Assembly (NCBI GenBank): GCA_031425655.1
Contig: JANPJS010000237.1
Location: 1-17,611, forward strand
Origin: Abditibacteriaceae bacterium
GTDB taxonomy: Bacteria; Armatimonadota; Abditibacteriia; Abditibacteriales; Abditibacteriaceae
Direction: 5' to 3'
Length of the DNA stretch: 17,611 bases
In this document: piece by piece, positions 1-15,796 of the stretch
How the letters are laid out: each line of letters opens with the position of its first letter
Position numbering within the stretch: position 1 is the stretch's first letter
Notes under the pieces: generated by a model
What the model saw: only the letters and a program-made list of their open reading frames with translations
Told to the model about the DNA's origin: nothing
Databases searched by the model: none
Translations under genes and position numbers: made by a program

Positions 1-17
1 CTCATTAATAGTTTCAT
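1..17 (-). CDS. 5' end of a gene running off the window edge (MKLLM...)
   Basis: Minus strand reads TAAGGAaaaaaactATGAAACTATTAATGAG: an AAGGA Shine-Dalgarno overlapping the upstream stop, then ATG at 17. Only 5 codons visible. Confidence 0.45.
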
Positions 18-27
18 AGTTTTTTCC

Positions 28-369
28 TTACCATCTTCCTTCTGATTGCAGTCTTCGAACGATATTGAGTAAATCCTTGCAGTCTCGGGAGCTGTTTTGT
101 GCGTAGTTGCCCTTGAAATCTTTTTTAACGTAGAGTTGAAAGTAGTCGCCATTGCGAACTATTTGCGACATTTTTCCAGGTTGAATTTGCTCTAAAACGA
201 GTCTGGACACATTATAGGATCCATTGCTGGCAACGAGGCTTGCCATGATGAAATGAAGCAACTTGCCTTCCATCTGTGAGCGGGCGTAAAAATTAAGGGC
301 ACCCGTTTTTGGATTAATCTGCGAAAATCCGTGTATGAAATCCGTGTAGGCGCAGCCTCCGTGTTCCAT
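28..369 (-). CDS. Hypothetical protein (113 aa; alternative start at 273), low-GC
   Basis: Same strand as the cluster, stop coupled to the next RBS. No family recognised. GC of 1-360 hand-counted at ~43%. The 5' part contains an out-of-frame direct repeat, so the start is uncertain. Confidence 0.4.
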   Translation of the reverse strand: MEHGGCAYTDFIHGFSQINPKTGALNFYARSQMEGKLLHFIMASLVASNGSYNVSRLVLEQIQPGKMSQIVRNGDYFQLYVKKDFKGNYAQNSSRDCKDLLNIVRRLQSEGRW

Positions 370-402
370 TAAAAATTCAGGCCCTTCAAGTAACTATGAA
401 CC

Positions 403-2184
403 TCACTGAGCCGGGGTCGCAGTCTGCATTCGATAAACCTGAAAACCGGCCCGCGCCAGTGAAGCCGGAATCTCGCGCATCATGGCGCGGTTGAAATCGC
501 GCGTGCCGTCGCCTAATTGCTCCCACGGCACCAGATTCGGATTGGTTTTGCGATTGGCATCGCGCGGCCCGCAACGCCAGCCCAACGCCTGACGCTCGGC
601 CATCCAGCGTTCGTGTTCCATGCGCGCCATCAGTTCGACTTCGTCGGGCGTAAAGCGAAACCCATGAGCGTCCCAATCGGTTAAAGGCGCGATGTCGCAA
701 CCGATGGCCTGCAATTTTTCGCTGATATCAAGCGCCTGCGCCCGATTGGATTCGCGCGTTTCTTCGGGCACGGCGTCCCACGGGGCTAACAGCGGGTTTT
801 GCTCGCGCGTCACGCCGGCGGCTTGCTGATCTTCAATATATTTGTCGTGCAGCGCCCGCGCCAGCATTTCCGGGATGCCGCCCAGCACCAAATCGGGCTG
901 ACAGGCGCGCTCCAACAATCCCACCGCGTGCAGCGATTGAAAGCGCGGCTGCGCTTCGCCCACGCGCCGCAGCAAGGCCGATAATCCGGCTTCCTGCGTC
1001 ATAGCGACGACAATCGGCACCGTGGTGTGGCGCAAATGCCGGTGCAGAATCAGCGCAGCCGAAAGCGCGAGGGAGTCGTCGGGCAGACAAACGTAAACGT
1101 GCGACACGTCGCAGTGTCCGTTTTCATCGAACAAAAACGCGGCGCGCTGAAAATCCGGCTCGTCGCATTTCATTTCCAGTGAGCGCAAGTCGCAGATTTT
1201 TTCGAGTTCAGGATGGCGCAAGTGCAGCATCTCGCGCACGCAATGCGTGTCGCTGTCTACCAAAGTCAAGCGTAATTTCGGCAGGCTGCTGATGTCGGCA
1301 TTCGGCGCCGCAGCGAACAAAATTTCGCGCCACGCGCGGGCCATATGCACGAGTAGGCTTTGCGCCAATCGCCCGCCGCCGACAATCAGCAAATGCGGCG
1401 TGCGTTCGGTCATGCCCTCGAACGGCGGATGCTCGTCCAACAACGCCCGCGCCGAGCTATCCACGACGTTGAAAAATTGCAAACGAAACGAGCCATGCTG
1501 CGCCATTTCCCATTCGCGCATCAGATACCACAAATCCGGGTTGACGATGTGCGCGCTGCACACTAACACGCCGTTGGTGCGATGTTCGGACAATTCGCGG
1601 GCGTGGGCGGCGATTTCAGCATTAACGCCGTCGTCGCCGCACAGCACGATGAGATGGCGCGCATCGCCGAGGCGCGCTTGTCGCATCAAGGCCGGTTCGC
1701 GCGCGTCGCCCCACAGCACAACAGCGCCCAACTCGCGCGCGGTGCCGGCGAAATCGTTGGATTCGCTTTCTTCAATAATCGCCACATCGCGGCCCTGTGT
1801 GCGAAAGGCTTTGAGCAGCAAAAGCCCTTTTTCGCCCAATCCGCAAATAATAACGTGGTCTTTGAAGCCGCGCAAACGCATCCGCTGCCAGCCATCGCCG
1901 CGAATAAAATAAGCCGCAATCGCCGCCGTGAAAACGCCCAACGTGCCGATGCCGGCGAACATCAGGAACATCGCAATCAAGCGCCCGCCGATGGTTTTCG
2001 GAAAAATATCGCCGTAGCCGATGGTCGTAACCGTCACCATCGCCCACCAAAAACTATCCCAGAGCGAAAGTTCAGGATTGCCCGGCTTTTCAAAGTAAAA
2101 GAAGCCCACCGCGCCCGCCAGCGCGACAGCCAGCAAGATGCCGCAGATGCCAAAAAGAATGGAGTTTTTGCCGGAGTCGCCCAT
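403..2184 (-). CDS. 2TM potassium channel with two RCK/TrkA-N domains and C-terminal tandem RyR repeats (593 aa)
   Basis: TM1, pore helix DSFWWAMVT, filter TVTTIGYGD (2008-2034), TM2. Rossmann motifs HVIICGLGEKG and HLLIVGGGRLA. Tail LARALHDKY..NPLLAPWDAVPEETRESNR and LMARMEHERWMAERQALGWRCGPRDANRKTNPNLVPWEQL, typical of RyR domain (PF02026). Confidence 0.92.
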   Translation of the reverse strand: MGDSGKNSILFGICGILLAVALAGAVGFFYFEKPGNPELSLWDSFWWAMVTVTTIGYGDIFPKTIGGRLIAMFLMFAGIGTLGVFTAAIAAYFIRGDGWQRMRLRGFKDHVIICGLGEKGLLLLKAFRTQGRDVAIIEESESNDFAGTARELGAVVLWGDAREPALMRQARLGDARHLIVLCGDDGVNAEIAAHARELSEHRTNGVLVCSAHIVNPDLWYLMREWEMAQHGSFRLQFFNVVDSSARALLDEHPPFEGMTERTPHLLIVGGGRLAQSLLVHMARAWREILFAAAPNADISSLPKLRLTLVDSDTHCVREMLHLRHPELEKICDLRSLEMKCDEPDFQRAAFLFDENGHCDVSHVYVCLPDDSLALSAALILHRHLRHTTVPIVVAMTQEAGLSALLRRVGEAQPRFQSLHAVGLLERACQPDLVLGGIPEMLARALHDKYIEDQQAAGVTREQNPLLAPWDAVPEETRESNRAQALDISEKLQAIGCDIAPLTDWDAHGFRFTPDEVELMARMEHERWMAERQALGWRCGPRDANRKTNPNLVPWEQLGDGTRDFNRAMMREIPASLARAGFQVYRMQTATPAQ

Positions 2185-2188
2185 GGGT

Positions 2189-2267
2189 GAAGAAGCCAGA
2201 AGTCAGAAAACAGAAGTTTGAAGAATTCAACTATTCTGATTTCTAACTTCTGACTTCTGACTTCTTC
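2189..2267. repeat. Inverted array of heptamer repeats (AGAAGTC-like / GACTTCT-like), imperfect hairpin
   Basis: Left arm GAAGAAGCCAGAAGTCAGAAAACAGAAGTTTGAA; right arm TTCAACTATTCTGATTTCTAACTTCTGACTTCTGACTTCTTC is an approximate reverse complement with one extra unit. Fills the 86-bp spacer. Confidence 0.85.
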
Positions 2268-2270
2268 GTC

Positions 2271-3155
2271 TTATTCGTCCAACATCTTAATTGCCTGGCG
2301 CAAGCTGCGGTGCATTCGGTTGAACGAGCCGGAAAGCGTGGCAATTTCATCGTTGCCGCGCACTGGCAAGTCTTCGACTTCTAAGTTGCCTTTGCTGATT
2401 TCGTCCGCGATATGCGAAAGTCTGGTGACAGGCTGCACCACAATCACGCGCAGCATGACGTTGAGAATCACGAGCGTGAGGATGAGCACAGCGGCTAAAG
2501 CGCCTAACATCAGGCCCGAAATGCGGCGGGCCATGCGTTGCGGGAGCGTCATCGGAACGGACACGACCTGCGCCGCGACAACTTCATTTAACTTCCAGCC
2601 GAAGCCGCCTTTGCCATATTCCCGAATCTGCGAGGCGGGCGCCATCGCGGGTGTGGTGTGGCATTGCAGGCACGATTTGTCCTTAATGCGAATGGGGCGC
2701 GCTAAATACAAATACGGCCCGCGCGGTGTGGCGCGTGTGCCGACGATTTCTTTGAGTGTTGAGTCTTTGCGAAAGCGGTTGAGCAGCGGCTCTTCCCATT
2801 TCGTGGCGATGTGTTTACGGTTGGTCGGGTTGAGCGAGGCTTCCTTGTAAAAGTAATCGGGATAGCCTTCGCGCAAATACTCAAACGTCCGCGTTGCGGA
2901 AAACGCCGGCACTGTTTCGGCCACGAATTTCCCATTGCGCTCAAAGGGCAGTTGGGGGCGAATACGCGTGTTGGTGTATTTCCGCACCGCGAGGGCGCTC
3001 TGCATCATCAGGCGTGCATCGCTTAAAACGTGTTCCCTGGCCTGTCGCTGTAAGAGCGCATTGAATACCCATCCCGCGAGCAGCAGCCCCGCGAGCGAAA
3101 CAACGATAAAAATAAGATTAAATTTCGGCACCAGCCGAAGCGAGAGGAAGTTCAT
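2271..3155 (-). CDS. Membrane-anchored c-type heme sensor (DUF3365/Tll0287-like) + HAMP, no output domain (294 aa; alt TTG start 3161)
   Basis: N-terminal TM; ETVPAFSA, YKEASLNPTN, LYLARPI, CLQCH (CxxCH, 2658-2672), GFGWKLNEVVAAQVVSVP; second TM; HAMP (PVTRLSHIADEISKGNL..DEIATLSGSFNRM) then stop. Confidence 0.9.
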   Translation of the reverse strand: MNFLSLRLVPKFNLIFIVVSLAGLLLAGWVFNALLQRQAREHVLSDARLMMQSALAVRKYTNTRIRPQLPFERNGKFVAETVPAFSATRTFEYLREGYPDYFYKEASLNPTNRKHIATKWEEPLLNRFRKDSTLKEIVGTRATPRGPYLYLARPIRIKDKSCLQCHTTPAMAPASQIREYGKGGFGWKLNEVVAAQVVSVPMTLPQRMARRISGLMLGALAAVLILTLVILNVMLRVIVVQPVTRLSHIADEISKGNLEVEDLPVRGNDEIATLSGSFNRMHRSLRQAIKMLDE

Positions 3156-3165
3156 AAGCAAGGTG

Positions 3166-4098
3166 TTACTTCAATAATTGGCGGCCTTTCAAAAAAGCCT
3201 GCTTTTCTTTTGGTGAAGTGAGATTCTCGGACAGCGATTGGTAAAGCTCGTCTAAATTCGCGGCCTGTTTGCTGGCGCGCTTGACCAGCACGCGCGCCAG
3301 TGGCCCCATATGTTCGGCCAGTTGGCGCTCGATTGTGTGCAAAACATTGTCGTCCCACACGGGCTGCGCGATCTCAATCGGCGCGGCGATTTCCGGTGCT
3401 GTCACGGGCGTTCCCTGCGGCGCGATATGCTGTGTCGCTTCTAAAAAGCGTTGGCGCTCGGCGTCTTGCAGCACAAATTGGCTGACTTCACGGCACAACT
3501 CGCTCAAGTTCTTAACTTTGAGCGCGGTTTGATGCACCAACACGCGCGCCATTGGCCCGATGACAACCGCCAACTCGCGCTCGACTTGGCGCAGGTCGTC
3601 GGGATTCCACTGCGTTGCCGCTTGCGTCACCTCCAACTCGGCGTCCTCGGTTTCTTCGGACACCTCGATCATTTCGAGGGCTTCATGGCGACCAGTCGCC
3701 TGCAAAAGCGCCTGAATGGTGTGCGCCAGCCTTTCCAAATGCGCTTCCATCGGCGGTGTGAGCGCGTCCAGCCAGTGCGGCGTGCCGATGAAATAGCGCA
3801 TATGCTTCGAGAGAGACACGTCTTCGAGGCGAAACGGCACAATCGGCAAGCCTTCGCTGACGGCATTCTGCACTTCGCGCTTCACTTGCTGCGAATCGTT
3901 GGAAGCGGCAGATAAAAGCAGCACGAGGACACGCGCGCTGGTGAGCGCATCCATGATTTCGTCCGTCCAGTCGTTGCCGGGCGTCACGTCGCGCGGCGCG
4001 ATCCAGCAGCGAATGCCGCGCGCCTCAAGTGTTGCGCAAACCGCATCCGATGTTAATTTATCTTTTGAAGAATAGCTGATGAAAACGTCGTGCGGCAT
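3166..4098 (-). CDS. TIR-domain protein (TIR_2 type) with two C-terminal 56-aa helical repeats (310 aa)
   Basis: HDVFISYSSKD, CWIAPRDVTPG, VLVLLLSAASNDSQQVKRE (putative catalytic Glu75), PIVPFRLE; acidic linker; repeats at aa 164-219 and 248-303. Confidence 0.92.
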   Translation of the reverse strand: MPHDVFISYSSKDKLTSDAVCATLEARGIRCWIAPRDVTPGNDWTDEIMDALTSARVLVLLLSAASNDSQQVKREVQNAVSEGLPIVPFRLEDVSLSKHMRYFIGTPHWLDALTPPMEAHLERLAHTIQALLQATGRHEALEMIEVSEETEDAELEVTQAATQWNPDDLRQVERELAVVIGPMARVLVHQTALKVKNLSELCREVSQFVLQDAERQRFLEATQHIAPQGTPVTAPEIAAPIEIAQPVWDDNVLHTIERQLAEHMGPLARVLVKRASKQAANLDELYQSLSENLTSPKEKQAFLKGRQLLK

Positions 4099-4114
4099 GG
4101 TAGCGTGATTCCAA

Positions 4115-4414
4115 TCAACCGGAGCCGGTTTCGCTCTTCTCGATACGATAACCCAAAGCCAAAATCACTTTGATGACTTGTCGCGCGATGATGCGGTCGT
4201 AGTCTTTTTCGATTTCGGACAACTCCTCATAAACGACCAAACACGGATGTTTTTTGCAGTCGTCGTCACGCTGCGGCCCATAAGTCCAGCCTTCGGACAA
4301 ACGCTGCTGCGCCCACACATCGTGCGTGTTACGCGATAGAAATTCCAACAAGGCCGCTAACTCTGGGTCGAGTTCAATATGAGAAGTATCAATCGGCGCC
4401 GGTGTGTAGTCCAA
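4115..4414 (-). CDS. Stand-alone RyR-domain (ryanodine receptor repeat) protein (99 aa)
   Basis: YTPAPIDTSHIEL..LLEFLSRNTHDVWAQQRLSEGWTYGPQRDDDCKKHPCLVVYEELSEIEKDYDR..IKVILALGYRI matches the RyR repeat consensus. TTG start with GAGGA RBS and in-frame stop upstream. Confidence 0.93.
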   Translation of the reverse strand: MDYTPAPIDTSHIELDPELAALLEFLSRNTHDVWAQQRLSEGWTYGPQRDDDCKKHPCLVVYEELSEIEKDYDRIIARQVIKVILALGYRIEKSETGSG

Positions 4415-4433
4415 GTGAATTTCCTCAACGCGA

Positions 4434-4458
4434 ATAGTTCATTAAAAGGATAGTTCAT
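4434..4458. promoter_or_regulatory. 9-bp direct repeat ATAGTTCAT x2 upstream of RyR gene (possible operator)
   Basis: Exact copies at 4434-4442 and 4450-4458 in an AT-rich spacer; function inferred only. Confidence 0.3.
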
Positions 4459-4491
4459 CACACCGGCCAGCAAAAGCGCCGGCACAGCGTT

Positions 4492-5274
4492 TCAACCGCC
4501 CCGCTCGTGCGTTGCCATATTATCGAATCGTTCCAGAGCCGATTGCATCGCTTCGGGCCGAACACTTAAATCGCCGGAAAACGGAAAATTCATCGCGCTG
4601 ATGATGAACAAAACCAGAGCAATCGTCGCGGCTAAAATAGCCGTCATCGCCGCTTGATTCTTGAATTTTTCCAACCCGAAGAAATAAGTGAAAAGCATCG
4701 TTGCAATGCCGCCCGCGATAAGCACCAACCACATCGGGCCGGGCACACCGCTGCGCCCGGCCAGCAGTCGCAAGCGCCGATTATCGCTGACCTCGGTCAG
4801 GCGCGAGAGACATTGGTCGTAAAGCACGCTTTCGCGGGCGCCCTTCGGCTGTAAATGCGTAAAGCCCGACCACAGGCGATCAAGATGCAGCGACGACTGG
4901 TCATCCAACTTGCCGCGCGCCATCGCCGGCCATTCTTTTTCGATGACGCCCTCTGCGTAAACGCGAATGTCTTTACGCAGACGCGCCGCTGTGGGCGCAG
5001 CAAATCCGGGCGCCATGCGATAAACGTCTAACAGCGCATTCGATTCGCGCTCAGCGACGACTTTGGCTTCTTCAAACTGTTCCCAGACTATCAAAACCGC
5101 GAAGGCCAACAGCACCGCGTAAATCACGCCGACGATAGCCAAAATAAACCCCGCCACGTCATGATGCTCGCGCAACGTGGCGGGCGACACCACGCGGCGC
5201 GCGATCCATAAACCGCCGACGGATAGCCCAACCGCGCCGCCAACCATTAGCGTGCCCAATAGCCACAGTCCCAT
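4492..5274 (-). CDS. DUF4239 / bestrophin-like membrane protein (260 aa)
   Basis: Two N-terminal TMs (incl. VGVIYAVLLAFAVLIVW), soluble helical middle (YAEGVIEKEWPAM, RRLRLL), two C-terminal TMs followed by NFPFSGDLSVRPE. ATG 5274 chosen because the ORF-track extension is translated palindrome. Confidence 0.8.
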   Translation of the reverse strand: MGLWLLGTLMVGGAVGLSVGGLWIARRVVSPATLREHHDVAGFILAIVGVIYAVLLAFAVLIVWEQFEEAKVVAERESNALLDVYRMAPGFAAPTAARLRKDIRVYAEGVIEKEWPAMARGKLDDQSSLHLDRLWSGFTHLQPKGARESVLYDQCLSRLTEVSDNRRLRLLAGRSGVPGPMWLVLIAGGIATMLFTYFFGLEKFKNQAAMTAILAATIALVLFIISAMNFPFSGDLSVRPEAMQSALERFDNMATHERGG

Positions 5275-5287
5275 AATTTCTCTTGAA

Positions 5288-5326
5288 ACACAAAGGCACA
5301 AAGAATCTCTCTTTGTGCCTTTGTGT
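5288..5326. repeat. Perfect 17-bp inverted repeat built from CACAAAG units (REP-like hairpin / possible terminator)
   Basis: ACACAAAGGCACAAAGA (5288-5304), loop ATCTC, TCTTTGTGCCTTTGTGT (5310-5326). Confidence 0.88.
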
Positions 5327-5357
5327 CGGGTGCCCTCTGGGCGGATGGTTAATTGCT

Positions 5358-7241
5358 TTACACCGGCGCGATACGAACTTTCACTTTCATGTCGGTGTTA
5401 ACGTGGTGCATCCGCACGCCACCGGCGCGTTTGCGCTCCAACATCTGCTGATGGCCGAGCGCCGCGGCATCCGGCAGTTTCACCGTGAGGCCTTCGGCGT
5501 CGAAATCGGTGTGCGGCTGGCCGTTAATGGTAACCGATTCGATTTTGATGCTGCCCGGCGGCAAAATATCGGGCGATACGCGCAAAATGTTGTCCTTGAA
5601 ACCGCCCGCTTTCGGCTTGAAATAAAAGTCCATCGGCTGCTTGGTGATGAGCAGATTGGTGTAAACCGCCGCTAAATAGCACAACTCAATCGAGTGATAA
5701 GCGCCCATCGAGTGGCTGCCCTTATCGCGCTCCGAACCGAGCAAATACGGCAGGCCGTTCGCCAAGACGTTGAAATAAACCGCGCCTGAATCAGTGTCCA
5801 AGAACCACGCATTGTAAAACGCCGACGATTCGCGCGCCAGTTTCAGGTATTCGTCTTTCTTCGTGCAGCCATTGAGAATGAGATAGGCCAAAATGCCCTG
5901 CTCTTGCTGCCACCACGCTTTGCGGTCGTGGAACGCCAAGCGATGAAATTCTTCGCCCTCGGCTTTTTGGCGTTCCATCACGTCATACCAGCCGCCGCGC
6001 TGCTGATCCATGCTGATCGCAGGCATTGAGTCAGCGAGTTTGCTCGCCAAAGCGGTGTATTTTTCCTTCGGACGCAGCGAGTTCATGCGCATCAAATTCC
6101 AGGCGATTTTCAAATCGTGCCCGGCGACGGCGCGGTCTTGCTGCCAGCCCCACTTTTGGTCGGCGCTCCAATCGTCGAAGAATTTTTCCTGCACAAATGG
6201 GCTGCCGTCTTTAGCTGGAAAATGCTCTTCGATGGTATCGAAAGTGTATTCCAGGAAGTCGGCGAAATCGTCGCGACCCGTGGCCAGCCACAGGTTGATG
6301 AGATAAGCCGGCGCGTGGTCGCCCACCGAGTTCCAGTTTTTGCGCGCTTGATTATGGGCCAACGAATCGGCCTTCGGGTCGAAGGTGTCGGTCGTGACGT
6401 GCGAGTAGTAGCCGCCCTTTTCCGAGGTGTCGAGATAATGCTTGTTGAAAAGCGCGATGGTCTTTTCGGCGTCTTCGAGAATGCCGGGGTCGCCGGTAAT
6501 GCGATAAGTCTGAATCGGGCCGGCGAGAGCGTAAATCTGCTCGTAGCAGGGAACAGCGGCCCAGTCGTCGCCGAAAAGCGAGCCGAGATGCTCTTTGGTG
6601 CCGCCGGCAGTGACTTCGAGCGCATGAAGCCAATAAACGATGTCATTGCCCCGGTCGCGCTTGCAGCACTTTTCGCGCAGATATTGCGTGCCTTTTTCCG
6701 CCGCTTCGAGGAAACGCTCTTCGCCTGTCAGCAAATACGCCGACGCGAAGCCGTAAGTCGTGCGCGAAATGGTGTCAATTTCCTGAATGCCGCTGCCCAA
6801 TTTGCTGCCGTCGAGAAACAGGTTGGTGCGATAATTGTTGAAATCTATCGGGCCGCCCTCGAACTGCGCCGCGATGTAAAAATCAGCGACTTGGCGCGCC
6901 TGCTCAATCCACCAATCCTGCTTTTCAAAGCAGAAATCCTCCGGCTTGGTGCCGGGAAAAACAAGGTGCTTGGCCTCGAAGTTGTAATCGCCGCCTTCGG
7001 GGTAGAAAACGCCGTAGGCGAACACGTAGTTGCCGGGCACCAGCACGTCTTTGAGAGTGCCCATCGCGTCTTTGTAACTCTCGCCTAAGTTGCGCACGAA
7101 CTCGCCGAAGGTGGCCGAGGTCAGCTTGCCGGAAAATTCGGCGCCGCCCGGCGTTTTGAGGCTAAAAGTGCCTTTGTCCACATCGGCGGCTGTCAGCGTG
7201 CCGGCGATGGTGTCCGAAAACATCCAATTGATCTGGTTCAT
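5358..7241 (-). CDS. AGE-family (N-acylglucosamine 2-epimerase/cellobiose epimerase superfamily) protein with extra N- and C-terminal domains (627 aa)
   Basis: Barrel motifs ISRTTYGFASAYLLTGEERFLEAAEKG, EQIYALAG, KNWNSVGDH, GHDLKIAW, WWQQEQG, YHSIELC. ATG 7241 preceded by AAAGGA. Confidence 0.85.
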   Translation of the reverse strand: MNQINWMFSDTIAGTLTAADVDKGTFSLKTPGGAEFSGKLTSATFGEFVRNLGESYKDAMGTLKDVLVPGNYVFAYGVFYPEGGDYNFEAKHLVFPGTKPEDFCFEKQDWWIEQARQVADFYIAAQFEGGPIDFNNYRTNLFLDGSKLGSGIQEIDTISRTTYGFASAYLLTGEERFLEAAEKGTQYLREKCCKRDRGNDIVYWLHALEVTAGGTKEHLGSLFGDDWAAVPCYEQIYALAGPIQTYRITGDPGILEDAEKTIALFNKHYLDTSEKGGYYSHVTTDTFDPKADSLAHNQARKNWNSVGDHAPAYLINLWLATGRDDFADFLEYTFDTIEEHFPAKDGSPFVQEKFFDDWSADQKWGWQQDRAVAGHDLKIAWNLMRMNSLRPKEKYTALASKLADSMPAISMDQQRGGWYDVMERQKAEGEEFHRLAFHDRKAWWQQEQGILAYLILNGCTKKDEYLKLARESSAFYNAWFLDTDSGAVYFNVLANGLPYLLGSERDKGSHSMGAYHSIELCYLAAVYTNLLITKQPMDFYFKPKAGGFKDNILRVSPDILPPGSIKIESVTINGQPHTDFDAEGLTVKLPDAAALGHQQMLERKRAGGVRMHHVNTDMKVKVRIAPV

Positions 7242-7286
7242 AGGTTCCTTTTTGAATTGGACTGCGCGCGTCAGCGCGTCAGCCAA

Positions 7287-9512
7287 TTAAACATCGGCTC
7301 GTTCGACATTGTCCGGCGTTTTTCCGACAGCGGCGGTCATCTCGCGCGCGGCGCCTTCAGGGTCGGCGATGGTCGCGGCGTCGGCTTCCTTGCCTGTTCT
7401 CATGTCTTTGGAAATCAACACTACAACGCTGTGCCCATTGACGATATAAACATTGCCGTCCACAGGCGTTTCGCGGCCTTGCTCGGCGAAATCGTCGGGC
7501 GAATGCAGCGAAGTATCCAATGAGCGGTGCCAGGTGCGCGCCGCGACGTGCGGAATCTCGAACGGCAGCGATTCCCAGCTCATGTTCATCATGACGTGCA
7601 TATCGGGATCGTCGCCGAAACCGGCCATCGTGAAGGCCAGGACATTAGAACCGGGATCGTCCCAACCCGGCCCGTTTAACTGGCAGCCGTGCCAACCGAC
7701 ATCAGGCAATCCGCGCTCGTTGAGTTGGCCGTTGAAAAAGCGCGTGCGGCGCAGAATCGGGTGCGATTTGCGGAACGCGATCATCTGCGTGAAGAAGCGC
7801 AGCGTGTCGCTGTGTTTGTCAACAAGGCTCCAGTCGAACCACGAAATTTCGTTGTCCTGACAATACGCGTTGTTGTTGCCGCCCTGTGTTTTGCGCACTT
7901 CGTCGCCGGCGCAGATCATCGGAACGCCCTGCGAAAGCAGCAAAATCGCCGCGAAATTCTTAATTTGCTGATTGCGAAGCTGTTCGATGCCGGCGTCGTC
8001 GGTTGGGCCTTCGACGCCGCAGTTCCAACTCAGGTTATCGTCCATTCCGTCGCGGTTGCCTTCGCCGTTGGCCGCGTTGTGCTTGTTGTTATACGACACC
8101 ATGTCGTTCAGAGTGAAGCCATCGTGGCAGGTGATGAAATTCACGCTGTTGACCGGCAATTCGCCGCCGTATTGAAACACTTCGGCGCTGCCGCCAATCG
8201 AGCTGGCAACAAGGCCAACCAATCCGGTGTCGCCCTTGACAAAGCGACGAATCGAGTCGCGGTAGCGCCCATTCCACTCGCCCCAGCGATAGCCGGGAAA
8301 ATGCCCGCTTTCGTTCAAGCCTTCGGCGTCCCAACACTCAGCGATGACTTTGGAATCTGCAAGCGTTTCCGACAACTCGATTTGCCAGATCACCGGCGGA
8401 TTCGGCATCGGCGCGCCGTTTTCATCGCGCGTGAGAACCACGGCTTCATCGAAGCGAAAGCCGTCAACGTGCATCTCGCGCACCCAGAATTCCAGCGAGT
8501 CAATGATGAACTTTTCAACAATCGGATGGTTGGCGTTAACGCTGTTGCCGCAGCCGGTGTAGTTCATATAGAACTCGCGGTCGGCGTGCGACAGCATATA
8601 ATAGGTGCTGTTGGCCAGCCCCTTGAAGCTCATGACCGGCCCCTGCTCGTTGCCTTCGCTGGTGTGGTTGTAAACCACGTCCAAAATGACTTCGAGGCCG
8701 GCCTTGTGAAACGCCTTCACCATATCGCGGAATTCGTTGATGTGCTGGCCAAACTCCGGCGTGGTGCAATAGCTGCTGTGCGGCGCAAAGAAACCAACGG
8801 TGCTGTAACCCCAGTAATTGCACAGCCGCGAGCCATCGGGCATCTCGCGCACGCCTTCTTTGGTGTCGAAGTCGAAGACCGGCAATAGCTCGATAGCCGT
8901 GACGCCTAAGCTTTGGAAATAAGGAATCTTCTCGATCAGACCGGTAAAGGTGCCGCGCGTTTTATCGTTCACGCCCGAAGTCGGCGATTTGGTCAGGCCG
9001 GCAACGTGCGCTTCGTAAATGATGGACTCTTCCATCGGGCGATTAAGTGGCTTGTCGCCTTCCCAATCGTAGCCGGAAAGGTCAATGACCACCGAGCGCA
9101 TCGAAGTTTTGAGGTTGTCGTCCGTCCCGCAGGCGGCACCGCGATCCCAAAGCGTATCGGTGTTGCCACGCGCATAGGGGTCAATCAGCACTTTGTTGGG
9201 GTTGTAACGGTCGCCGCGCCCGTGCAAGTCTTTCGGGCCATCCACGCGATAAGCGTAATGCGCGCCCGACTTCAAGCCGCGCACGTAAACGTGCCAAAAA
9301 TAGAACGTCTTGTTCTTGACCGCATCGAGATTGATGGTCTGAACCGGCTCCACATCGTCGTGGGCATCGAAAATCAGCAGTTCGACACGGGTCGCCGAAT
9401 CCGAATAAATCGAAAAATTGACGCCGTTGTCATCGGGAATCGCGCCCAGAGGATGGCTTTGGCCCGCTTCGGTTTCGTAATAAGTTGTGGTGGGTGGCTT
9501 GGCTTTTTTCAT
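7287..9512 (-). CDS. glgX: Glycogen debranching enzyme / isoamylase (GH13 with CBM48) (741 aa)
   Basis: [52 protein letters not shown] (nucleophile), IAECWD (acid/base), [32 protein letters not shown]. Start 9512 avoids overlap with the VOC gene. Confidence 0.95.
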
Positions 9513-9516
9513 GAAA

Positions 9517-9942
9517 TTAATCCAGAGGCGGCGGTGAATCCTGATCTGTGTAGCCCTGACTGACTTCCACAATGTTTCCATCGGGATCGCTCAGCCAAAC
9601 GGTGCGCCAGCCGGGAATAAAGGCATCGAAATCGAGCGGCCCCAGCGTGATTGTGGCGTCTTCGCCCATCGCGCTGAGCGTGGCGTCCACATCGTCCACT
9701 TGAAACGCGATATGGCGCAAACCCGGAAAATGCGGCCCGTCGCCGCCGGCGGGCGCCGACGGCGCTTCGCCTTCGGACGAAAACAATTCCAAATACACTT
9801 CGCCGGCCTTCAAGAACACGATTTGCTGCTCGCCGAGAGGAATCACGCGCGCCCGCTGGAAGCCAAAATGCTGCGCGTAAAAACGCTCGGTGGCAAGCGG
9901 GTCTTTGCAGGAAAGCGCGATATGAGAAAATTTAAGAGCCAT
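9517..9942 (-). CDS. VOC (glyoxalase/bleomycin resistance/dioxygenase) family protein (141 aa)
   Basis: SHIALSCKD, FYAQHFGF, YLELF, LRHIAFQVDDVD, DPDGNIVEV; full His/Glu/His/Glu metal-ligand set. Confidence 0.93.
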   Translation of the reverse strand: MALKFSHIALSCKDPLATERFYAQHFGFQRARVIPLGEQQIVFLKAGEVYLELFSSEGEAPSAPAGGDGPHFPGLRHIAFQVDDVDATLSAMGEDATITLGPLDFDAFIPGWRTVWLSDPDGNIVEVSQGYTDQDSPPPLD

Positions 9943-9953
9943 GAGGGTGCCTT

Positions 9954-10634
9954 TTATTTTTTGGGTTTAACCGCACTCGATTTCGCGGCGCTGCCCTGCG
10001 CGGCGATGACTTTTTTGGCCGCCGCGACATTAGCTTTCGCGGCGCTCTTTTCCGCAACAACCGCCTTCTCTGTCAGAATCTCGATGATCTTGCGGGCGAA
10101 GAAATGGCAATGGCCGCCGGTGCGTGCCGTCACTAAGTCGCCGTCCACGACCACGTCTTCGTTGACGTAAATCGCACCCATGTTTTTGGCATCGCCGTGC
10201 AAGTTATTATGCACCACAACCTTGCGGCCCTGAACCAATTCCGGCATCGGCGCCATCAGCCACATTCCATGACAAATTATGCCTTTGAGAATGTCTTTAT
10301 TGGCAAAGGCGCGCTGCATAAAGAGCGTTGCGGGCGGCAGATTATTAACGTCTTCCGTGTAACGCAAGCGGTCAGCCACCATGCCGGCGGGGACGATAAT
10401 CGCGGCATAGGCCGCCAAATCTTCGTCGCTCATGCCTTCGAGACTTTGCTCCGAAAAAACCCCCGAAATGTGATATTCGTGGCCTTTGAAATCAATGTGG
10501 CTCTGGCCCCACAAGCGTGTCAGGAAAACGACTTCGGCGCCTTCTTCGGCGAAACGGTGCTGGTAATACCAGATTTCCGGCTCGTAAAAGTCGCTTTCGA
10601 TGAGAATACCGATTTTTTTGCCTTGCAAATTCAT
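9954..10634 (-). CDS. DJ-1/PfpI family protein with Ala/Lys-rich tail (226 aa; alt GTG start 10652)
   Basis: GKKIGILIESDFYEPE, AIIVPAG, nucleophile elbow GIICHG, VVVDGDLVTAR. ATG 10634 preceded by AAAGGA. Confidence 0.92.
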   Translation of the reverse strand: MNLQGKKIGILIESDFYEPEIWYYQHRFAEEGAEVVFLTRLWGQSHIDFKGHEYHISGVFSEQSLEGMSDEDLAAYAAIIVPAGMVADRLRYTEDVNNLPPATLFMQRAFANKDILKGIICHGMWLMAPMPELVQGRKVVVHNNLHGDAKNMGAIYVNEDVVVDGDLVTARTGGHCHFFARKIIEILTEKAVVAEKSAAKANVAAAKKVIAAQGSAAKSSAVKPKK

Positions 10635-10648
10635 AAGTTGTCCTTTGT

Positions 10649-12199
10649 TCACGACTTCAGGGCTAAATCGGCGACTTTTTCACCAATCATCACGCAAGCC
10701 GCGTTAGTGTTGCCGCGCACAATGTTGGGCATGATCGAAGCATCGGCCACGCGCAAGCCCGCGACGCCGCGCACTCTAAGCTCGGAGTCCACGACCGCCA
10801 TGTCGTCGTTGCCCATTTTGCAGGTGCCCGCGACGTGCCAGACCGTGCGGCAGTAATTGCGAATGTATTCGCGCATTTCATCGGGCGTAGCAGTCGGCCC
10901 CGGCGACACTTCGCCATCGGTGAATTCCTGCATCGGCCCGGTCTTGGTAATCTCGCGCGAAAGCTCAATGCCCTGGCGCAGCACCTCGACATCTGAGGCT
11001 TCCTGTAGATAATTGGCGCGCACGACGGCCAAATCCTGCGGGTTCGCGGAACGCAGGCTCACCGTGCCCCGGCTTTGTGGCCCGACTAAAATCGGCACGA
11101 AGGCAAAGGCCGGCATCGCCACAGGATAAGTCGGCAACACAAATTCCGGCTTTCCGGCGCCAAAGTGATATTGCAAATCCGGCGCTCCGTCGGCTTTGTC
11201 CAGTCCGTTGCTTTGGCCGCGCTGCGTGTTGACGAACAAGCCTGCTTCCGCGATGAAGTAAGGCAACGGCAGGTCGCGCTTCGACTTGTGCCAGACCGGG
11301 AGCAGCAAATGATCCTGCAAATTCTGCCCGACGCCGGGCAAATCCGCCTGCACGTCGAGGCCATGCTGCTGCAACTGGCCCGCAGGGCCGATGCCCGACA
11401 GCATCAGCAATTTCGGCGAGTCGAAGGCGCCCACGCACAAAATCACTTCGCGCGCCGCGTGCGACTGCTGTATCTGGCCTTCGTGCAGATATTCGACGCC
11501 CACGGCGCGCCCGTTTTCCAACAGCACGCGCGTGGTGTGCGCGCCGGTTCGCACCTCAAGGTTGGCCCGGCCCAATATCGGGTTCAGATAGGCGACGGCG
11601 GTGCTGGCGCGCTGGCCGTCGGGCGTGACGGTGAATTGATAAAGCCCCGTCCCGTTTTCCTGCTGCGCGCCGTTGAAGTCGTGATCCCCGGCAAAGCCTA
11701 ACTCAGGCCCGGCCTGCGCGAAGGCTTCCGCGACGGGCGTCGGATAAGGATTGCGCCGCACGCTGAGAGGCCCATCACCGCCGTGAAACGCAGAGTCGCC
11801 GCCTTCGCAGGTTTCCATGCGCTTGAAAAAGGGCAGCACTTCGTCAAAGCTCCAGCCGGGGTTGCCCAACGCGCTCCAGCTATCGAAATCGCGCCGGTTG
11901 CCTCGGACGTGAATCATCGCGTTGAGCGCGCTCGAACCGCCCAGCACTTTACCGCGCGCAATGGGAATCACACGATTGTTGAGGCCCGGCTCCGGTTCGG
12001 TGGCGTAATTCCAGTCCACCTCGCTGCCCCACAGCTTGAGCAAATCCGGCGGATTATGAATCTCCGGTTTGGTGTCGGGGCCGCCGGCTTCGAGCAGCAG
12101 CACCCGATTGCCGGCGTCGGCGCTCAGGCGATGCGCCACGACGCAGCCCGCCGATCCCGCGCCGATGACGATGAAGTCGAAAGTGCTATCGGCACTCAT
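10649..12199 (-). CDS. GMC family FAD oxidoreductase (choline/glucose dehydrogenase-like) (516 aa)
   Basis: FDFIVIGAGSAG, RGKVLGGSSALNAM, GAFDSPKLLMLSGIG, GQNLQDH, WHVAGTCKMG, RVADASIMP, GNTNA. ATG 12199 preceded by GGGAG. Confidence 0.95.
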   Translation of the reverse strand: MSADSTFDFIVIGAGSAGCVVAHRLSADAGNRVLLLEAGGPDTKPEIHNPPDLLKLWGSEVDWNYATEPEPGLNNRVIPIARGKVLGGSSALNAMIHVRGNRRDFDSWSALGNPGWSFDEVLPFFKRMETCEGGDSAFHGGDGPLSVRRNPYPTPVAEAFAQAGPELGFAGDHDFNGAQQENGTGLYQFTVTPDGQRASTAVAYLNPILGRANLEVRTGAHTTRVLLENGRAVGVEYLHEGQIQQSHAAREVILCVGAFDSPKLLMLSGIGPAGQLQQHGLDVQADLPGVGQNLQDHLLLPVWHKSKRDLPLPYFIAEAGLFVNTQRGQSNGLDKADGAPDLQYHFGAGKPEFVLPTYPVAMPAFAFVPILVGPQSRGTVSLRSANPQDLAVVRANYLQEASDVEVLRQGIELSREITKTGPMQEFTDGEVSPGPTATPDEMREYIRNYCRTVWHVAGTCKMGNDDMAVVDSELRVRGVAGLRVADASIMPNIVRGNTNAACVMIGEKVADLALKS

Positions 12200-12216
12200 A
12201 ATTTCTCCCGTCGAAA

Positions 12217-12648
12217 CTAACCGTTGGCCCGAATTCCACCCAACTGAGTCAGCAGGCTCAGGGCGTCGGGAACATCCCAATATTCGGCGACTTTGCCGTT
12301 TTCCAGACGCAGCACGCTGGCGCCCTTATATTCGACTTTTTTGCCCGTCGCGGGAATGCCCAGATAGGTATCGGAATGGGTGCCGGTTGAGACCCAGTAA
12401 ACCCAGGCACGGTCGCCCTGCGCGGCGCTGTCGAGAATCTCCATACGACCGTCGGGAAAGGCTTGCTGCCACTCGGCCACCATGCCGGTAAACGCCGCTT
12501 TATCAAGCGGCTGCGGACGCGGCGCGATATACATCTGAAAATCGTCCGTCAAATTTTCGGCGATCACCTGCGCGGCATCGGGCGTGTGCCACACGCCGTC
12601 CCAGATGCGCTCGAAGGTTGCTTTGAGATCGTTTGCTTGAAGTTCCAT
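12217..12648 (-). CDS. SnoaL-like ester cyclase (NTF2 fold) (143 aa)
   Basis: AFPDG, GTHSDTYLGIPATGKKV, RLENGKVAEYW..D..LLTQLG signature. Confidence 0.92.
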   Translation of the reverse strand: MELQANDLKATFERIWDGVWHTPDAAQVIAENLTDDFQMYIAPRPQPLDKAAFTGMVAEWQQAFPDGRMEILDSAAQGDRAWVYWVSTGTHSDTYLGIPATGKKVEYKGASVLRLENGKVAEYWDVPDALSLLTQLGGIRANG

Positions 12649-12653
12649 GAGTT

Positions 12654-13808
12654 TCAGGGTTTAGGGCGCGGCTCGGTTCCACCGGGATAACTCACCGGGC
12701 GATGCGCGTCGTAATCAATGTTCTTTCCGACAAAGCCAAAGGTCATCTGCCGCACGTTGAAGCCGGGAATCGCCGGGCTGCCGTAATCGAGAAAATCGAA
12801 GGGATAGCCTTTGCGAACAATCGGTGTGGTCAGCGCAGCGTCGGTTGCCTCCACGACTTTCTGGAACTCGTCGGGCGTGAACTGCCAATCGAGACAAACG
12901 AGGTTTTCCTTCATCTGCTCAACGGTTCGCGCGCTGAAAATCGGGATAATGTTTTGATAGCGCAGAAAGTTGAGCGCGACCTGCACGGGAGGACGCCCGA
13001 TTTCCTGCGCGACGCGCATCACGCTATCCATGATTTGCTTATTGCGCTCCAACCCGGCGCGCCAGATGTGATCCTGGGCCGGATCGAGCGGTTCCTGCAA
13101 ACGATGAGTTTGGTTGGGATCAAGTTCGCCGCTGTTATATTTGCCCGTCACCATGCCGCCCGAAAGCGGCGACCACGCCGTCACGGCCATGTCCATGGTC
13201 TGTGCCATCGGCAGATAATCGCGCTCGGCGCTGCGCTCGACCACGTTGTATTCAACCTGTAGCGCATTGAACGGCGTCCAGCCGCGAAAATCGGCGATGG
13301 TGTTGGCCTGCGAGCAAATCCACGCCGGCACGTTCGAGGCCCCGATGTAGAGAATCTTTCCGGCGCGCACCAAGTCGTCTAAGGCGCGCATCACTTCTTC
13401 AATCGGCGTGGTGAAGTCCCAGATGTGAACCCACAGCAAATCAATGTAATCGGTTTGCAGGCGCTTGAGGCTGGCTTCGACCGAGCGCACCAGATTCTTG
13501 CGATGGTTGCCCGAAGCGTTCGGGTCGTTCATCATCGCAAAGGTGTCATAAAGCGAATACTTCGAGCCAAGCACGAATTTATCGCGCTCACTGGCGATGA
13601 ACTCACCTAATAATTCCTCGGACATTCCTTCCTGATAGCGGTTGGATGTATCGAGAAAATTGCCACCGGCTTCGACGAACGCCTCGAAAATCTGGCGACT
13701 GGCGTCCTTGTCCGAGCCGAGCGGCCCCCACATCGTGCCGAAGGTGCCTGCACCCAGGCAAAGCTCGGAAACGCGCAGGCCACTACGGCCCAACAATTTA
13801 TATCGCAT
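12654..13808 (-). CDS. Aldo/keto reductase (384 aa)
   Basis: LGRSGLRVSELCLG, catalytic tetrad D/Y (LDTSNRY), K (GSKY), H (WVHIWD), SLKRLQTDYIDL, AWSPLSGG. Confidence 0.95.
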   Translation of the reverse strand: MRYKLLGRSGLRVSELCLGAGTFGTMWGPLGSDKDASRQIFEAFVEAGGNFLDTSNRYQEGMSEELLGEFIASERDKFVLGSKYSLYDTFAMMNDPNASGNHRKNLVRSVEASLKRLQTDYIDLLWVHIWDFTTPIEEVMRALDDLVRAGKILYIGASNVPAWICSQANTIADFRGWTPFNALQVEYNVVERSAERDYLPMAQTMDMAVTAWSPLSGGMVTGKYNSGELDPNQTHRLQEPLDPAQDHIWRAGLERNKQIMDSVMRVAQEIGRPPVQVALNFLRYQNIIPIFSARTVEQMKENLVCLDWQFTPDEFQKVVEATDAALTTPIVRKGYPFDFLDYGSPAIPGFNVRQMTFGFVGKNIDYDAHRPVSYPGGTEPRPKP

Positions 13809-13852
13809 GGCAAACCTCTACTGAATTACTCAGCCCCGGTTGATAAGCGGAG

Positions 13853-13885
13853 CAGCGCGCGGCGACAAATTGACGCCGCGCGCTG
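13853..13885. terminator. GC-rich intergenic stem-loop (terminator or mRNA-stabilising hairpin)
   Basis: CAGCGCGCGGCG (13853-13864) / CGCCGCGCGCTG (13874-13885), perfect 12-bp stem just downstream of the beta-barrel stop; no U-tract. Confidence 0.55.
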
Positions 13886-13897
13886 ACCTGATGGGTT

Positions 13898-14794
13898 TTA
13901 AAAGAAAACGCGCACGCCGGCTTCAACGGTGCCGGTATTGCCGCCGGTCACGTCGAGCGGCACGACCAAGCCCGGAACGGGCGGAACGTCGAAGCGGAAT
14001 TTGAGCTTAGTGCCTAAGAACTTGCGATAGCCCAGCGTGAACTCCGTGCGCCTGTTGACCGCGTAGGAGGTGCCGATGCGGTATTGCCAGGCGTTCGTTT
14101 CGGTGCTGCGCGTGTCGAGGACGATGTTGGCTCCCGACAAACTGGGCGCCGTAAAGCCGTTAATGCTCGACTGATAAACGCCATAGCCGGCGCCGATGTA
14201 AGGCTTGAAGCGCGACTTTTTCAAGGGCAGATCATAGTAGACATTGGCCATGAACGCGCGCAGTCCGACGTTGCCCACCGACGGCTCATTCGTGCCCGTC
14301 GCTGTGTTGGTGATAAAGGTCTTGTTCTTGTTGTTCTGATAGCTGCTTTCCGCTTCCAAGCGGATGCCGTTGCCAAAGCGATAGCCGGCCATTCCATTCA
14401 GGCCGAAGCCGTTGGAAAATACCGCCGCCGTTTGCGGAACCGCCGTGATATCGGTTGACTGCTTGCGATTGACACGACCAGCGCTCATACCTAAATACCA
14501 TCCGGTTGCCTTACCCGGCTCCGCCGTCTCCGTTCCGCCCGGCGTCACGCTGGTCTGGCCGCGCAACTCGGCCACTTCCTTTTCCAAACGCTCCTGACGC
14601 GCCTTGAACCCTTCCCATTCCGCGCGCGGGATTGTCACCGTGTCGCCGGGGCCAACCTGTGCCAGCAGCACAGGAGCCGGCGGCGCGGAGGACGGCGCTT
14701 CTTCAGTGCGCGCCTCTTCGGCCTGCACCGCCGCCATCAATCCGACTGCCAGTAGCTGCGTCATCACAACGCCACGTCTCATTGCCTTGTTCAT
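13898..14794 (-). CDS. Outer-membrane beta-barrel protein (OmpA-like/opacity-porin type) with signal peptide (298 aa)
   Basis: ATG 14794 preceded by AAGGAG; signal peptide ending VQA; strands GWYLGMSAG, AGYRFGNGIRLEAE, FMANVYYDL, FKPYIGAGYG, AWQYRIGTSY; C-terminal Phe (VEAGVRVFF). Confidence 0.88.
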   Translation of the reverse strand: MNKAMRRGVVMTQLLAVGLMAAVQAEEARTEEAPSSAPPAPVLLAQVGPGDTVTIPRAEWEGFKARQERLEKEVAELRGQTSVTPGGTETAEPGKATGWYLGMSAGRVNRKQSTDITAVPQTAAVFSNGFGLNGMAGYRFGNGIRLEAESSYQNNKNKTFITNTATGTNEPSVGNVGLRAFMANVYYDLPLKKSRFKPYIGAGYGVYQSSINGFTAPSLSGANIVLDTRSTETNAWQYRIGTSYAVNRRTEFTLGYRKFLGTKLKFRFDVPPVPGLVVPLDVTGGNTGTVEAGVRVFF

Positions 14795-14877
14795 CTCGTT
14801 GCTCCTTGGTTTAATTACGGCTTCGCATATTGGAAAGGCGCACAACAGGCGCGCCACAAGTTTGCGCATTCTACAGA

Positions 14878-15270
14878 TCAGGCCAGCGAGCCATCGGGAT
14901 GTTGCACCATGCCCGCGAAGTGAATGGCGATTTTTCCATCGCGCAACACCCAACTGTCGGCAAAACGCATATTGGCTTCACCTTGCGCGGTTTTCATCGC
15001 GATTTGCTCGGTGATCATCAGCGTTTGTGGGTCTTCGGTTTCAGCCCAGAACACGATCTCGGTTTCCAGGCCGTCTATGCCTAAAATCCCCTGCATATGC
15101 TCGCGCAGTTGATCGCGGCCCCGATAAATAATCGGTGTCTTCATGAAGCTGCTAATAAGCAAGGCGTCGTCGGTGTATTGGTCGAGCAGCGCCTCAATGT
15201 TCTTTTCCAAAATGAGGTTGATGTGCTCCCGATACATCCGGCCCATCGTGGTGTCCGGCACGTTTTTCAT
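14878..15270 (-). CDS. NTF2/SnoaL-like domain protein (130 aa)
   Basis: NIEALLDQYTDDALLIS..YRGRDQLREH..DSWVLRDGKIAIHF pattern; AAAGGA RBS. Confidence 0.87.
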   Translation of the reverse strand: MKNVPDTTMGRMYREHINLILEKNIEALLDQYTDDALLISSFMKTPIIYRGRDQLREHMQGILGIDGLETEIVFWAETEDPQTLMITEQIAMKTAQGEANMRFADSWVLRDGKIAIHFAGMVQHPDGSLA

Positions 15271-15294
15271 GATAATCCTTTCGAGGCGGCGCGC

Positions 15295-15771: not shown

Positions 15772-15796
15772 AATGTTCTCCTTATTGCTCCGCCGC

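Follow-up and report, generated by a model that had tools for sequence, protein, structure and literature searches.

The 17,611-nucleotide contig JANPJS010000237.1 (C237, positions 1-17,611; hereafter the window) belongs to the 5.98-Mb genome of an Abditibacteriaceae bacterium (GCA_031425655.1) and carries a module of four minus-strand open reading frames (ORFs) that encode, in this order, a free RyR protein, a TIR protein, a Cache_heme-transmembrane-HAMP (CHH) sensor, and a K+ channel. The locus is a real, conserved, and undescribed variant of TIR second-messenger signaling, one that takes over the receptor input of the CHH-kinase system and has a likely wiring. We hold it to be slightly better than an even bet that the module works as a receptor-coupled TIR second-messenger circuit, most likely in a stress response. 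Its genes are as follows.

4414-4115, minus strand: free RyR (R12-type) protein, 99 amino acids, TTG start; Pfam PF02026, E 9.5e-34.
4098-3166, minus strand: TIR-DUF8082 protein, 310 amino acids; TIR_2, E 4.4e-22, and two copies of PF26309.
3155-2271, minus strand: CHH sensor, 294 amino acids from ATG; PF11845 and PF00672.
2184-403, minus strand: K+ channel, 593 amino acids; Ion_trans_2, TrkA_N, and RyR (two stretches).

The ORF calls bear out the four co-oriented genes and the spacers of 16, 10, and 86 bp that an earlier note, made from this DNA alone, had described. Pfam and motif matches likewise recover the domains that it named, namely a free RyR, a TIR with its Glu, and a CxxCH sensor ending at HAMP, and its GYG channel with an RCK-RCK-RyR-RyR tail stands as well, the second RCK domain coming from an AlphaFold model and not from Pfam. 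Two features were absent from that note: the pair of DUF8082 repeats on the TIR protein and, beyond the window, a fifth gene (SLOG-SLATT). The sensor length of 294 residues agrees with the database protein of the window. The GC content of the module (0.571) is close to that of the genome (0.567), whose only RyR genes are those of the module. Compared with the same-genus genome G019, all four genes have a dN/dS of 0.14-0.20, with dS near saturation. A scan returned 1 promoter-like site against 2.3 expected and 15 terminator-like sites against 9.1 expected, with no convincing promoter or terminator between the module genes.

The sensor combines a transmembrane helix at residues 12-30, a periplasmic DUF3365 domain (Tll0287-like, Pfam E 6e-39), a second transmembrane helix at 222-240, and a HAMP domain at the C terminus, as placed by Pfam and hydropathy. 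It thus has the architecture of a CHH receptor without an output domain, and it adjoins a partner with two HAMP-docking helical repeats (two PF26309 copies with their motifs). The heme motif CLQCH (C162-x-x-C165-H166) lies in the periplasmic domain, the CxxCH is kept in 104 of 104 aligned sensor rows, and the genome encodes cytochrome c assembly genes. A Pseudomonas azotoformans homologue of this architecture binds nitric oxide (NO) (Deshpande et al., bioRxiv 10.64898/2026.05.25.727664; this and the other papers are cited from the parts of their text that were available). At position 255, the 21 closest sensors have Lys and 45 of the 83 others have Thr, and kinase-partnered proteobacterial sensors also have Lys, Met, Leu, Arg, or Gln there, with Thr in 3 of 20 loci. 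Loss of a HAMP phospho-threonine was rejected as a mark of TIR-partnered sensors, since kinase-partnered sensors vary likewise and T256 of the paper is not mappable.

The TIR domain occupies residues 1-135 of its protein, with the catalytic E75 in the motif QVKRE, and the C-terminal ~150 residues form two DUF8082 (PF26309) helical repeats at about 163-225 and 247-305. These repeats carry IGPMARVLV and MGPLARVLV, which correspond to a HAMP-docking motif: in the CHH-kinase system, the kinase docks on the HAMP dimer of its receptor via two pseudo-symmetric helical repeats (IGPLARFLV... and IGPIARIVV...), with a dissociation constant (Kd) of about 90 nM and a cryo-EM map at 3.47 A (bioRxiv 10.64898/2026.05.25.727664). 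From the motif and from kinase fusions, we infer that the docking repeats of the kinase are DUF8082. In the 53 database relatives of the repeat part, the fusion partner is a Ser/Thr kinase, a class III cyclase, or a TIR, the TIR fusions amounting to six full-length cases with the present protein included. When the HAMP dimer and the repeats were modeled together, the complex scored 0.40 against 0.00 for the best control, a weak pass: scores of this level were seen for 18 of 157 solved complexes and for 2 of 215 mismatches, the only mismatches to pass; contact agreement between runs was at least 90% and partner pLDDT (predicted local distance difference test) at least 68. The TIR domain is the best-conserved part of the protein (77-81% in five relatives vs 50-58% for the repeats), E75 is kept in 12 of 12 TIR-DUF8082 proteins, and this is the only DUF8082 protein detected in the genome. 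The protein is therefore like the partner in the P. azotoformans system in adjoining a CxxCH receptor that lacks an output domain and in ending in two GP(L/I/M)AR repeats, yet it differs in that the docked domain is a TIR instead of a PknB-like Ser/Thr kinase or class III cyclase, and in that RyR, channel, and SLOG genes are added. A TIR partner is not mentioned in the available text of the CHH-kinase paper, nor does the word "TIR" occur in that of its companion preprint (10.64898/2026.02.01.703092). Together, these features predict a sensor-bound, NAD+-cleaving enzyme. The link from sensor to TIR proposed in the earlier note has in this way gained a structural precedent in the docking of DUF8082 repeats on the CHH HAMP.

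The channel has a two-transmembrane (2TM) pore with the filter TTIGYGD, followed by RCK1 (GLGEKG...E138), RCK2, and the tandem RyR repeats, which is the layout of an RCK-gated K+ channel (TxGYG between two transmembrane helices and then RCK domains). RCK2 was missed by Pfam and is present in the AlphaFold model (pLDDT 93.3) as two Rossmann lobes. The best match of the model in the Protein Data Bank (PDB) is the dual-RCK channel GsuK (E 4.8e-14). Like GsuK, MthK, and Slo, the protein has a 2TM pore, a GYG filter, tandem RCK domains, and a Rossmann nucleotide motif; unlike them, it has a tandem RyR in place of the usual C-terminal RCK C-lobe region, the full GxGxxG on RCK1 instead of RCK2, and a TIR-linked gene. 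Within the RCK1 GxGxxG...E motif, G115, G117, G120, and E138 are conserved at 90% or more. The channel is a predicted nucleotide-gated effector. In the wider 2TM-RCK-RCK-RyR-RyR family, 84 of the 132 proteins counted (those of at least 520 residues out of 142 distinct proteins) have a degenerate pore loop (LQLFxLxxG) in place of the K+ filter; they include the filter-less members of the set P0024, P0032, and P0044-P0123, and loci L038, L042, and L056. Among viral contigs, one distant RCK-RyR-SLOG protein was found in 70 pattern matches, and a TIR-DUF8082 relative in 0 of 17.

The pockets of the RyR domains differ between the free protein and the channel. In the free RyR, H31, W34, H56, and D73 match H75, W78, H100, and D117 of RyDEP (from MN234187.1) at identical, ungapped spacing, and the protein matches PDB 3NRT (E 6.2e-30); it thus has the PF02026 fold with the His-Trp-His-Asp pocket of the R12 domain and of the phage RyR sponges. 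Such phage proteins either cleave 2'/3' cyclic ADP-ribose (cADPR), as RyDEP does with the four residues named, or sequester it (Lopez Rivera et al., PMC13232231). Unlike RyDEP, the present protein is host-encoded and lies beside the TIR that it would regulate, and an ion channel carries a second, tandem copy with Asn substituted; a host receptor role for RyR is not reported in the available text of that paper. Among 26 distinct free RyR proteins of the fetched sequences, a set skewed to the best Pfam scores within one phylum, Asp is present in 26 and the full HWHD in 22. In the channel, the tetrads read H446/Y449/N463/N480 in the first repeat, which is weak when taken alone (E 9.9e-4), and H524/W527/N548/N565 in the second, so that the His and aromatic pocket residues are retained in both and Asn stands at the catalytic Asp. 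Likewise, the last repeat of filter-bearing RCK-RyR channels is without the Asp in 48 of 48 cases (47 Asn, 1 Thr; HWNN in 46). Repeats 1 and 2 of human RyR2 read HWHN and HWNN, the latter being the tetrad of the last repeat of these channels, and the R12 of RyR3 binds ADP and AMP-PCP in its cleft (PMC12627627). The channel thereby resembles Repeat12 of animal ryanodine receptors in its tandem pseudo-symmetric cytosolic RyR repeats, its Asn at the acid position of RyDEP, and an adenine-nucleotide cleft (PMC12627627), whereas the overall channel architecture is unrelated and the first repeat has Tyr for Trp, making this an analogy of parts with no ancestry shown. The pockets fit a non-catalytic reader on the channel with a sponge or hydrolase alongside, and the free RyR is predicted to act as a sponge or glycosidase, damping or terminating the signal.

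Other RyR loci show a similar company. Among 61 distinct RyR loci without CHH, TIR lies in 23, SLOG in 20, and either in 34 (26 of 43 among loci of at least 8 kb), against 2 TIR and 1 SLOG ORFs in the whole 5.98-Mb genome studied here. In L044 (G237), a TIR gene is followed by an RCK-RyR frame (7430-9598) whose 5' part also contains, in a different reading frame, a free RyR ORF (7572-7859); the true start of the long frame is probably downstream. At L078:1821-3086, a six-transmembrane Ion_trans channel is fused to a single full HWHD RyR and adjoins an RCK-RyR gene. RyR pairs fused to RelA/SpoT-TPR-SLOG proteins and AAA+ ATPases occur in L056, L074, L075, L101, L054, L107, and L122, with NUDIX or SIR2 genes nearby.

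The fifth gene encodes a 670-740-residue membrane protein and directly follows the channel in all eight relatives. In the genome studied here, it lies at C177:264-2273 (L099), at a contig start, and the next genes are a caspase-PEGA-TPR gene in convergent orientation, which G084 and G161 have at this place too, and a Ser/Thr kinase gene. Its model (pLDDT 89.0) has an N-terminal SLOG fold, with YpsA (Z 16.1, root mean square deviation 2.8 over 162 residues) and DprA (Z 11.5) found by fold search; the top eight rows of that search (YpsA, DprA-type, Moco-carrier, and related small proteins) are ones that we take to be SLOG-fold. Searches of the PDB by sequence and profile gave no match, and the fold search alone matched. 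Hydropathy places four hydrophobic segments in the protein, and its SLATT likeness comes from Atlas neighbors with SLATT_1/3 or DUF4231 at 0.94-0.95 and from Pfam DUF4231 below the cut-off in homologues. The family counts 1304 representatives at E up to 1e-30, with no Pfam model above the cut-off. A repeat lies next to the channel in the window.

306-377, no strand assigned: dispersed repeat of ~70 bp, just beyond the channel; dozens of genome copies by blastn.

A 38-bp exact copy of this repeat opens C177 ahead of the SLOG-SLATT gene, and copies are often found in inverted pairs and at contig ends. The repeat bears on the contig break and is not part of the mechanism. Direct sequence joining found no end overlap between C237 and C177, nor between the two G019 contigs. 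The ORF at 28-369 (113 residues, AT-rich) was rejected as a fifth gene of the module because its start lies within the repeat and the region is 42% GC; no homologue of it was found in the genome, the fetched loci, Pfam, NCBIfam, or PADLOC.

Conservation of the gene set was examined among 401 genomes of the phylum Armatimonadota and among 27 genomes of the same family (f1). The CHH sensor is present in 14 of the 401, of which nine belong to f1, four to f31, and one to f12. TIR-DUF8082 lies in the sensor locus in 11 of these 14; in G019 it is at the end of another contig, in G143 it is unseen as the contig ends after the sensor, and G304, which has a cyclase-DUF8082 instead, is also the exception to the presence of RyR genes in the sensor locus (13 of 14). 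As a control, the sensor was found in 31 of 401 genomes (34 matches) of a proteobacterial class, and the loci of 20 of these matches, 6-13 kb long, were examined. A DUF8082 protein adjoins the sensor in 19 of these 20 (kinase in 12, cyclase in 10), and TIR, RyR, SLOG, or RCK-RyR was found in 0 of 20. The RyR genes therefore track the TIR output and not the sensor, although, kin not being independent, this co-occurrence amounts to about two lineages. Within f1, the sensor and SLOG-SLATT are found in the same 9 of 27 genomes, the DUF8082 pair in eight of those nine, and the sensor and channel share a locus in all nine. The complete RyR-TIR-sensor-channel order is found again in G134, G084, and G266. 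The last of these has both the channel and the gene after it broken into two pieces, and genes of the enzyme cluster described below are broken likewise, which suggests sequencing error. Members of f31 keep the free RyR, sensor, and TIR-DUF8082, divergent from a TPR-S/SLOG/class III cyclase gene (L109, L113, L136, and L137), and no RCK-RyR channel was found in these four fetched loci (Pfam run on two of them). The portable unit is free RyR, CHH, and TIR-DUF8082, with exchangeable effectors among which the channel is one of several. Because the same set recurs in relatives, the gene set is not due to chance, and the co-occurrence in other genomes on which the earlier note had staked its proposal holds. 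In the sensor tree, f1 and f31 sensors each lie on one side of a starred branch (100/99), and the branch uniting them has support of only 92/77, so the tree does not show that the TIR partnership arose just once.

A gene like the f31 cyclase adjoins a free RyR in L045, L103, and L108 and is fused to RyR in L126. The class III cyclase-DUF8082 fusions beside CHH in 10 of the 20 proteobacterial loci (L175-L194; proteins P0139, P0141, P0144, P0158, and others), three of them with a kinase-DUF8082 too, are candidate periplasmic-NO-regulated nucleotide cyclases; the available text of the kinase paper (bioRxiv 10.64898/2026.05.25.727664) makes no mention of a cyclase-DUF8082 partner.

In the circuit that we propose, a periplasmic heme ligand, probably NO as in the P. 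azotoformans homologue, would bind the CHH receptor dimer. Through its two DUF8082 repeats, the TIR protein would stay attached to the cytoplasmic HAMP, where relatives have a kinase or cyclase, as suggested by the docking seen for the kinase and here by motif, gene order, and the weak complex prediction. A change in HAMP might then turn on NAD+ cleavage, for example, via assembly of TIR domains, giving an ADP-ribose-type product. This product would bind the non-catalytic tandem RyR cleft of the channel as well as the SLOG domain of the SLOG-SLATT protein, altering both ion flux and membrane potential, by analogy with ligand binding by RyDEP and RyR3, gating of GsuK, and the SLOG/SLATT effectors of Thoeris. 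Finally, the free RyR, which is dispensable in some genomes, may sequester or hydrolyze the product and so set a threshold or end the signal.

Several points weigh against this circuit. The first concern the switch and the neighboring gene: the authors of the kinase study think direct receptor control of the catalytic domain unlikely, and NO left formation of the kinase-receptor complex unchanged (bioRxiv 10.64898/2026.05.25.727664), so the route by which the TIR would be switched on is not established; resemblance to the kinase complex may contribute to the complex score; and the SLOG-SLATT gene likely adjoins the left end of the window, a position inferred and not assembled. As to the pockets, the tetrad was rejected as a predictor of enzyme vs sponge because sponge-type homologues of RyDEP also carry HWHD (PMC13232231), and filter-less RCK-RyR proteins keep the Asp in 48 of 84, so that the Asp/Asn split is a clade property of kin that are not independent. 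The TIR and SLOG profiles behind the counts at other RyR loci were built from the very loci counted, with most TIRs Pfam-confirmed. Moreover, no free RyR was detected in G107 and G161, and in G259 an unrelated glucanotransferase splits the module. The channel, free RyR, and SLOG-SLATT occur in G300 without CHH or TIR-DUF8082 nearby and in G249 with a TIR-WD40 and no sensor nearby, so the effector pair is not tied to the CHH sensor. In addition, the aromatic position of the WxxxE motif is Gln (Q71) in 12 of 12 TIR-DUF8082 proteins. All cyclizing TIRs tested have an aromatic residue there (Manik et al., 10.1101/2022.05.07.491051), and the TIR thus lacks the mark of producers of cADPR isomers. 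Therefore, the TIR may not make the demonstrated RyDEP ligands 2'/3'cADPR, and the product may be linear ADP-ribose (ADPR), something undescribed, or nothing. Since the crystal of RyDEP has linear ADPR in its pocket (PMC13232231), ADPR is possible as a ligand. Finally, GsuK is activated by ADP and NAD+ through the GxGxxG...E motif on its RCK2 (PMC3510474), and with the motif conserved on RCK1 of the present channel, gating may bypass RyR.

The last two points are shared by a quite unlikely alternative, in which the TIR is a plain NADase with linear ADPR as its product and a fall in NAD+ as its effect, and RCK1 of the channel senses NAD+, ADP, or ADPR in the manner of GsuK, the RyR tails being accessory or binding general adenine nucleotides. 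Q71 predicts a non-cyclic product, the RCK1 motif is conserved, the best fold match is a channel activated by ADP and NAD+ through that motif, and the binding of ADP and AMP-PCP by the R12 of RyR3 would suit general nucleotide binding. However, RyR genes track the TIR output and not the sensor (13/14 vs 0/20), the His and aromatic pocket residues are kept in both channel repeats, and f31 keeps the free RyR without an RCK-RyR channel in the locus. The interpretation given in the earlier note is supported in part. For the NAD-derived messenger acting on RyR that it had proposed, the binding of TIR-made cADPR isomers by phage RyR speaks in favor, whereas a cyclic ADPR product is doubtful given Q71; as to its gating of the channel through RCK and RyR, RCK1 rather than RyR is possible, and the channel is one of several exchangeable effectors.

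Upstream of the module, Pfam identified a cluster of enzymes.

4492-17503, minus strand: co-inherited upstream enzyme cluster.

The cluster includes bestrophin-like, AGE-type epimerase, GlgX, VOC, PfpI, GMC oxidoreductase, three SnoaL, aldo-keto reductase, outer-membrane protein barrel, and thiamine pyrophosphate enzyme genes. The AGE-type gene, with 63-92% identity across relatives, is found in eight of the nine module-bearing f1 genomes and in none of the other 18. As this pattern is near that of the module, island hitch-hiking contributes to the family pattern. The same numbers (8/9, 0/18) could also arise if two uncoupled modules, CHH/TIR-DUF8082 with the TIR possibly a scaffold and the RyR channel with SLOG-SLATT, shared one island inherited with the enzyme cluster, and each pair is indeed found without the other (G300 and G249; f31). 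We regard this arrangement as very unlikely, as all 4 of the f31 loci, in which the trio lies away from the enzyme cluster, still contain the free RyR together with a SLOG protein (the G340 effector being an N-terminal fragment at a contig end), and the G266 module keeps its order on another contig than the cluster. The genes are also interleaved (RyR-TIR-CHH-channel) with spacers of 10-86 bp, and E75 is invariant. Two side observations concern the cluster: in G300, it is separated from the RyR genes by a ferritin-like/CDGSH protein, and in two same-genus genomes (L140:8347-9375 and L141:12848-13951), another TIR protein of 342-367 residues without DUF8082 follows the bestrophin-like gene, in the place taken by the module in the genome studied here.

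An unlikely alternative is that the same wiring serves immunity or cell death in a Thoeris-like manner: the receptor would report envelope or redox damage linked to infection, and the cell would be depolarized by the channel together with the SLATT protein. Like Thoeris types I, VII, and X, which are defined by SLOG, SLATT, and ion-channel effectors (bioRxiv 10.64898/2025.12.03.692087), the locus has a TIR signal maker with a catalytic Glu (E75) next to predicted nucleotide-reading effectors (channel-RyR and SLOG-SLATT). The ion-channel effector of type X responds to a signal reported as unknown in that survey, which predicts 29 types. Phages, moreover, carry RyR sponges against TIR signals; caspase-PEGA-TPR, WD40-caspase, and TIR-STAND-TPR genes are neighbors of the module; its distribution is patchy (9/27); and other RyR loci adjoin TIR-STAND, DUF4062-STAND, and SIR2 genes. 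These neighbors, the SLATT/SLOG effectors, and the patchy distribution speak for a role in defense. Unlike in Thoeris, however, the TIR is of the TIR_2 type (79.3 bits vs 26.9 bits, E 6.8e-6, for ThsB_TIR) and is predicted to dock on a transmembrane heme receptor. PADLOC has no model matching the channel, sensor, free RyR, or SLOG-SLATT, and the TIR gave only generic TIR matches (ThsB1 at E 2e-4 or worse, a weak one). No curated Thoeris effector model was matched in Pfam, NCBIfam, and PADLOC scans, whose libraries predate types V-XI. In addition, the input comes from a periplasmic heme sensor belonging to a type that binds NO, and an encoded signal-quenching RyR suits graded signaling at least equally. 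A role in stress signaling is thus preferred over defense because of the sensor type, the genome-like GC content, the linkage to a metabolic enzyme cluster with which the module is inherited, and the absence of a PADLOC match for four of the five proteins.

A narrower version of the stress circuit, which we put forward only tentatively, is a non-immune pathway in which periplasmic NO acts through the receptor-docked TIR, an ADP-ribose-type messenger (possibly a new one, given the Gln) opens the K+ channel via the tandem, Repeat12-like RyR cleft, and the stand-alone RyR is the off-switch. The terms "RyR," "TrkA," and "HAMP" have 0 occurrences in the available main text of the Thoeris survey (bioRxiv 10.64898/2025.12.03.692087), and the word "RyR" is absent from the available text of PMC9503650. 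In a literature search mostly without subscription papers, no study was found that joins a heme/HAMP receptor with a TIR, or a RyR domain with a bacterial K+ channel, and within this literature the view that no system of this composition had been characterized is upheld. The original survey of SLOG/SLATT/TPR-S by Burroughs and Aravind may mention these architectures.

In the available text of the literature consulted, bacterial TIR signaling is phage-triggered immunity, and prokaryotic RyR domains are only phage anti-defense proteins. The present locus pairs a TIR with a transmembrane gas/redox receptor, and its 593-residue channel allows one to ask whether an R12-type domain gates a pore by an NAD-derived signal. 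This bears on how cADPR acts on animal ryanodine receptors, a question raised by the authors of the RyDEP study (PMC13232231). The DUF8082 repeats, in turn, come out as an adapter by which one type of receptor is matched with at least three output enzymes, namely a kinase, a class III cyclase, and a TIR. If the wiring is true, an "immune-type" messenger pathway would be plugged into an environmental sensor, and the tentative NO pathway, if true, would give bacterial RyR domains their first host receptor role and would be the first case of an environmental sensor driving a TIR messenger system.

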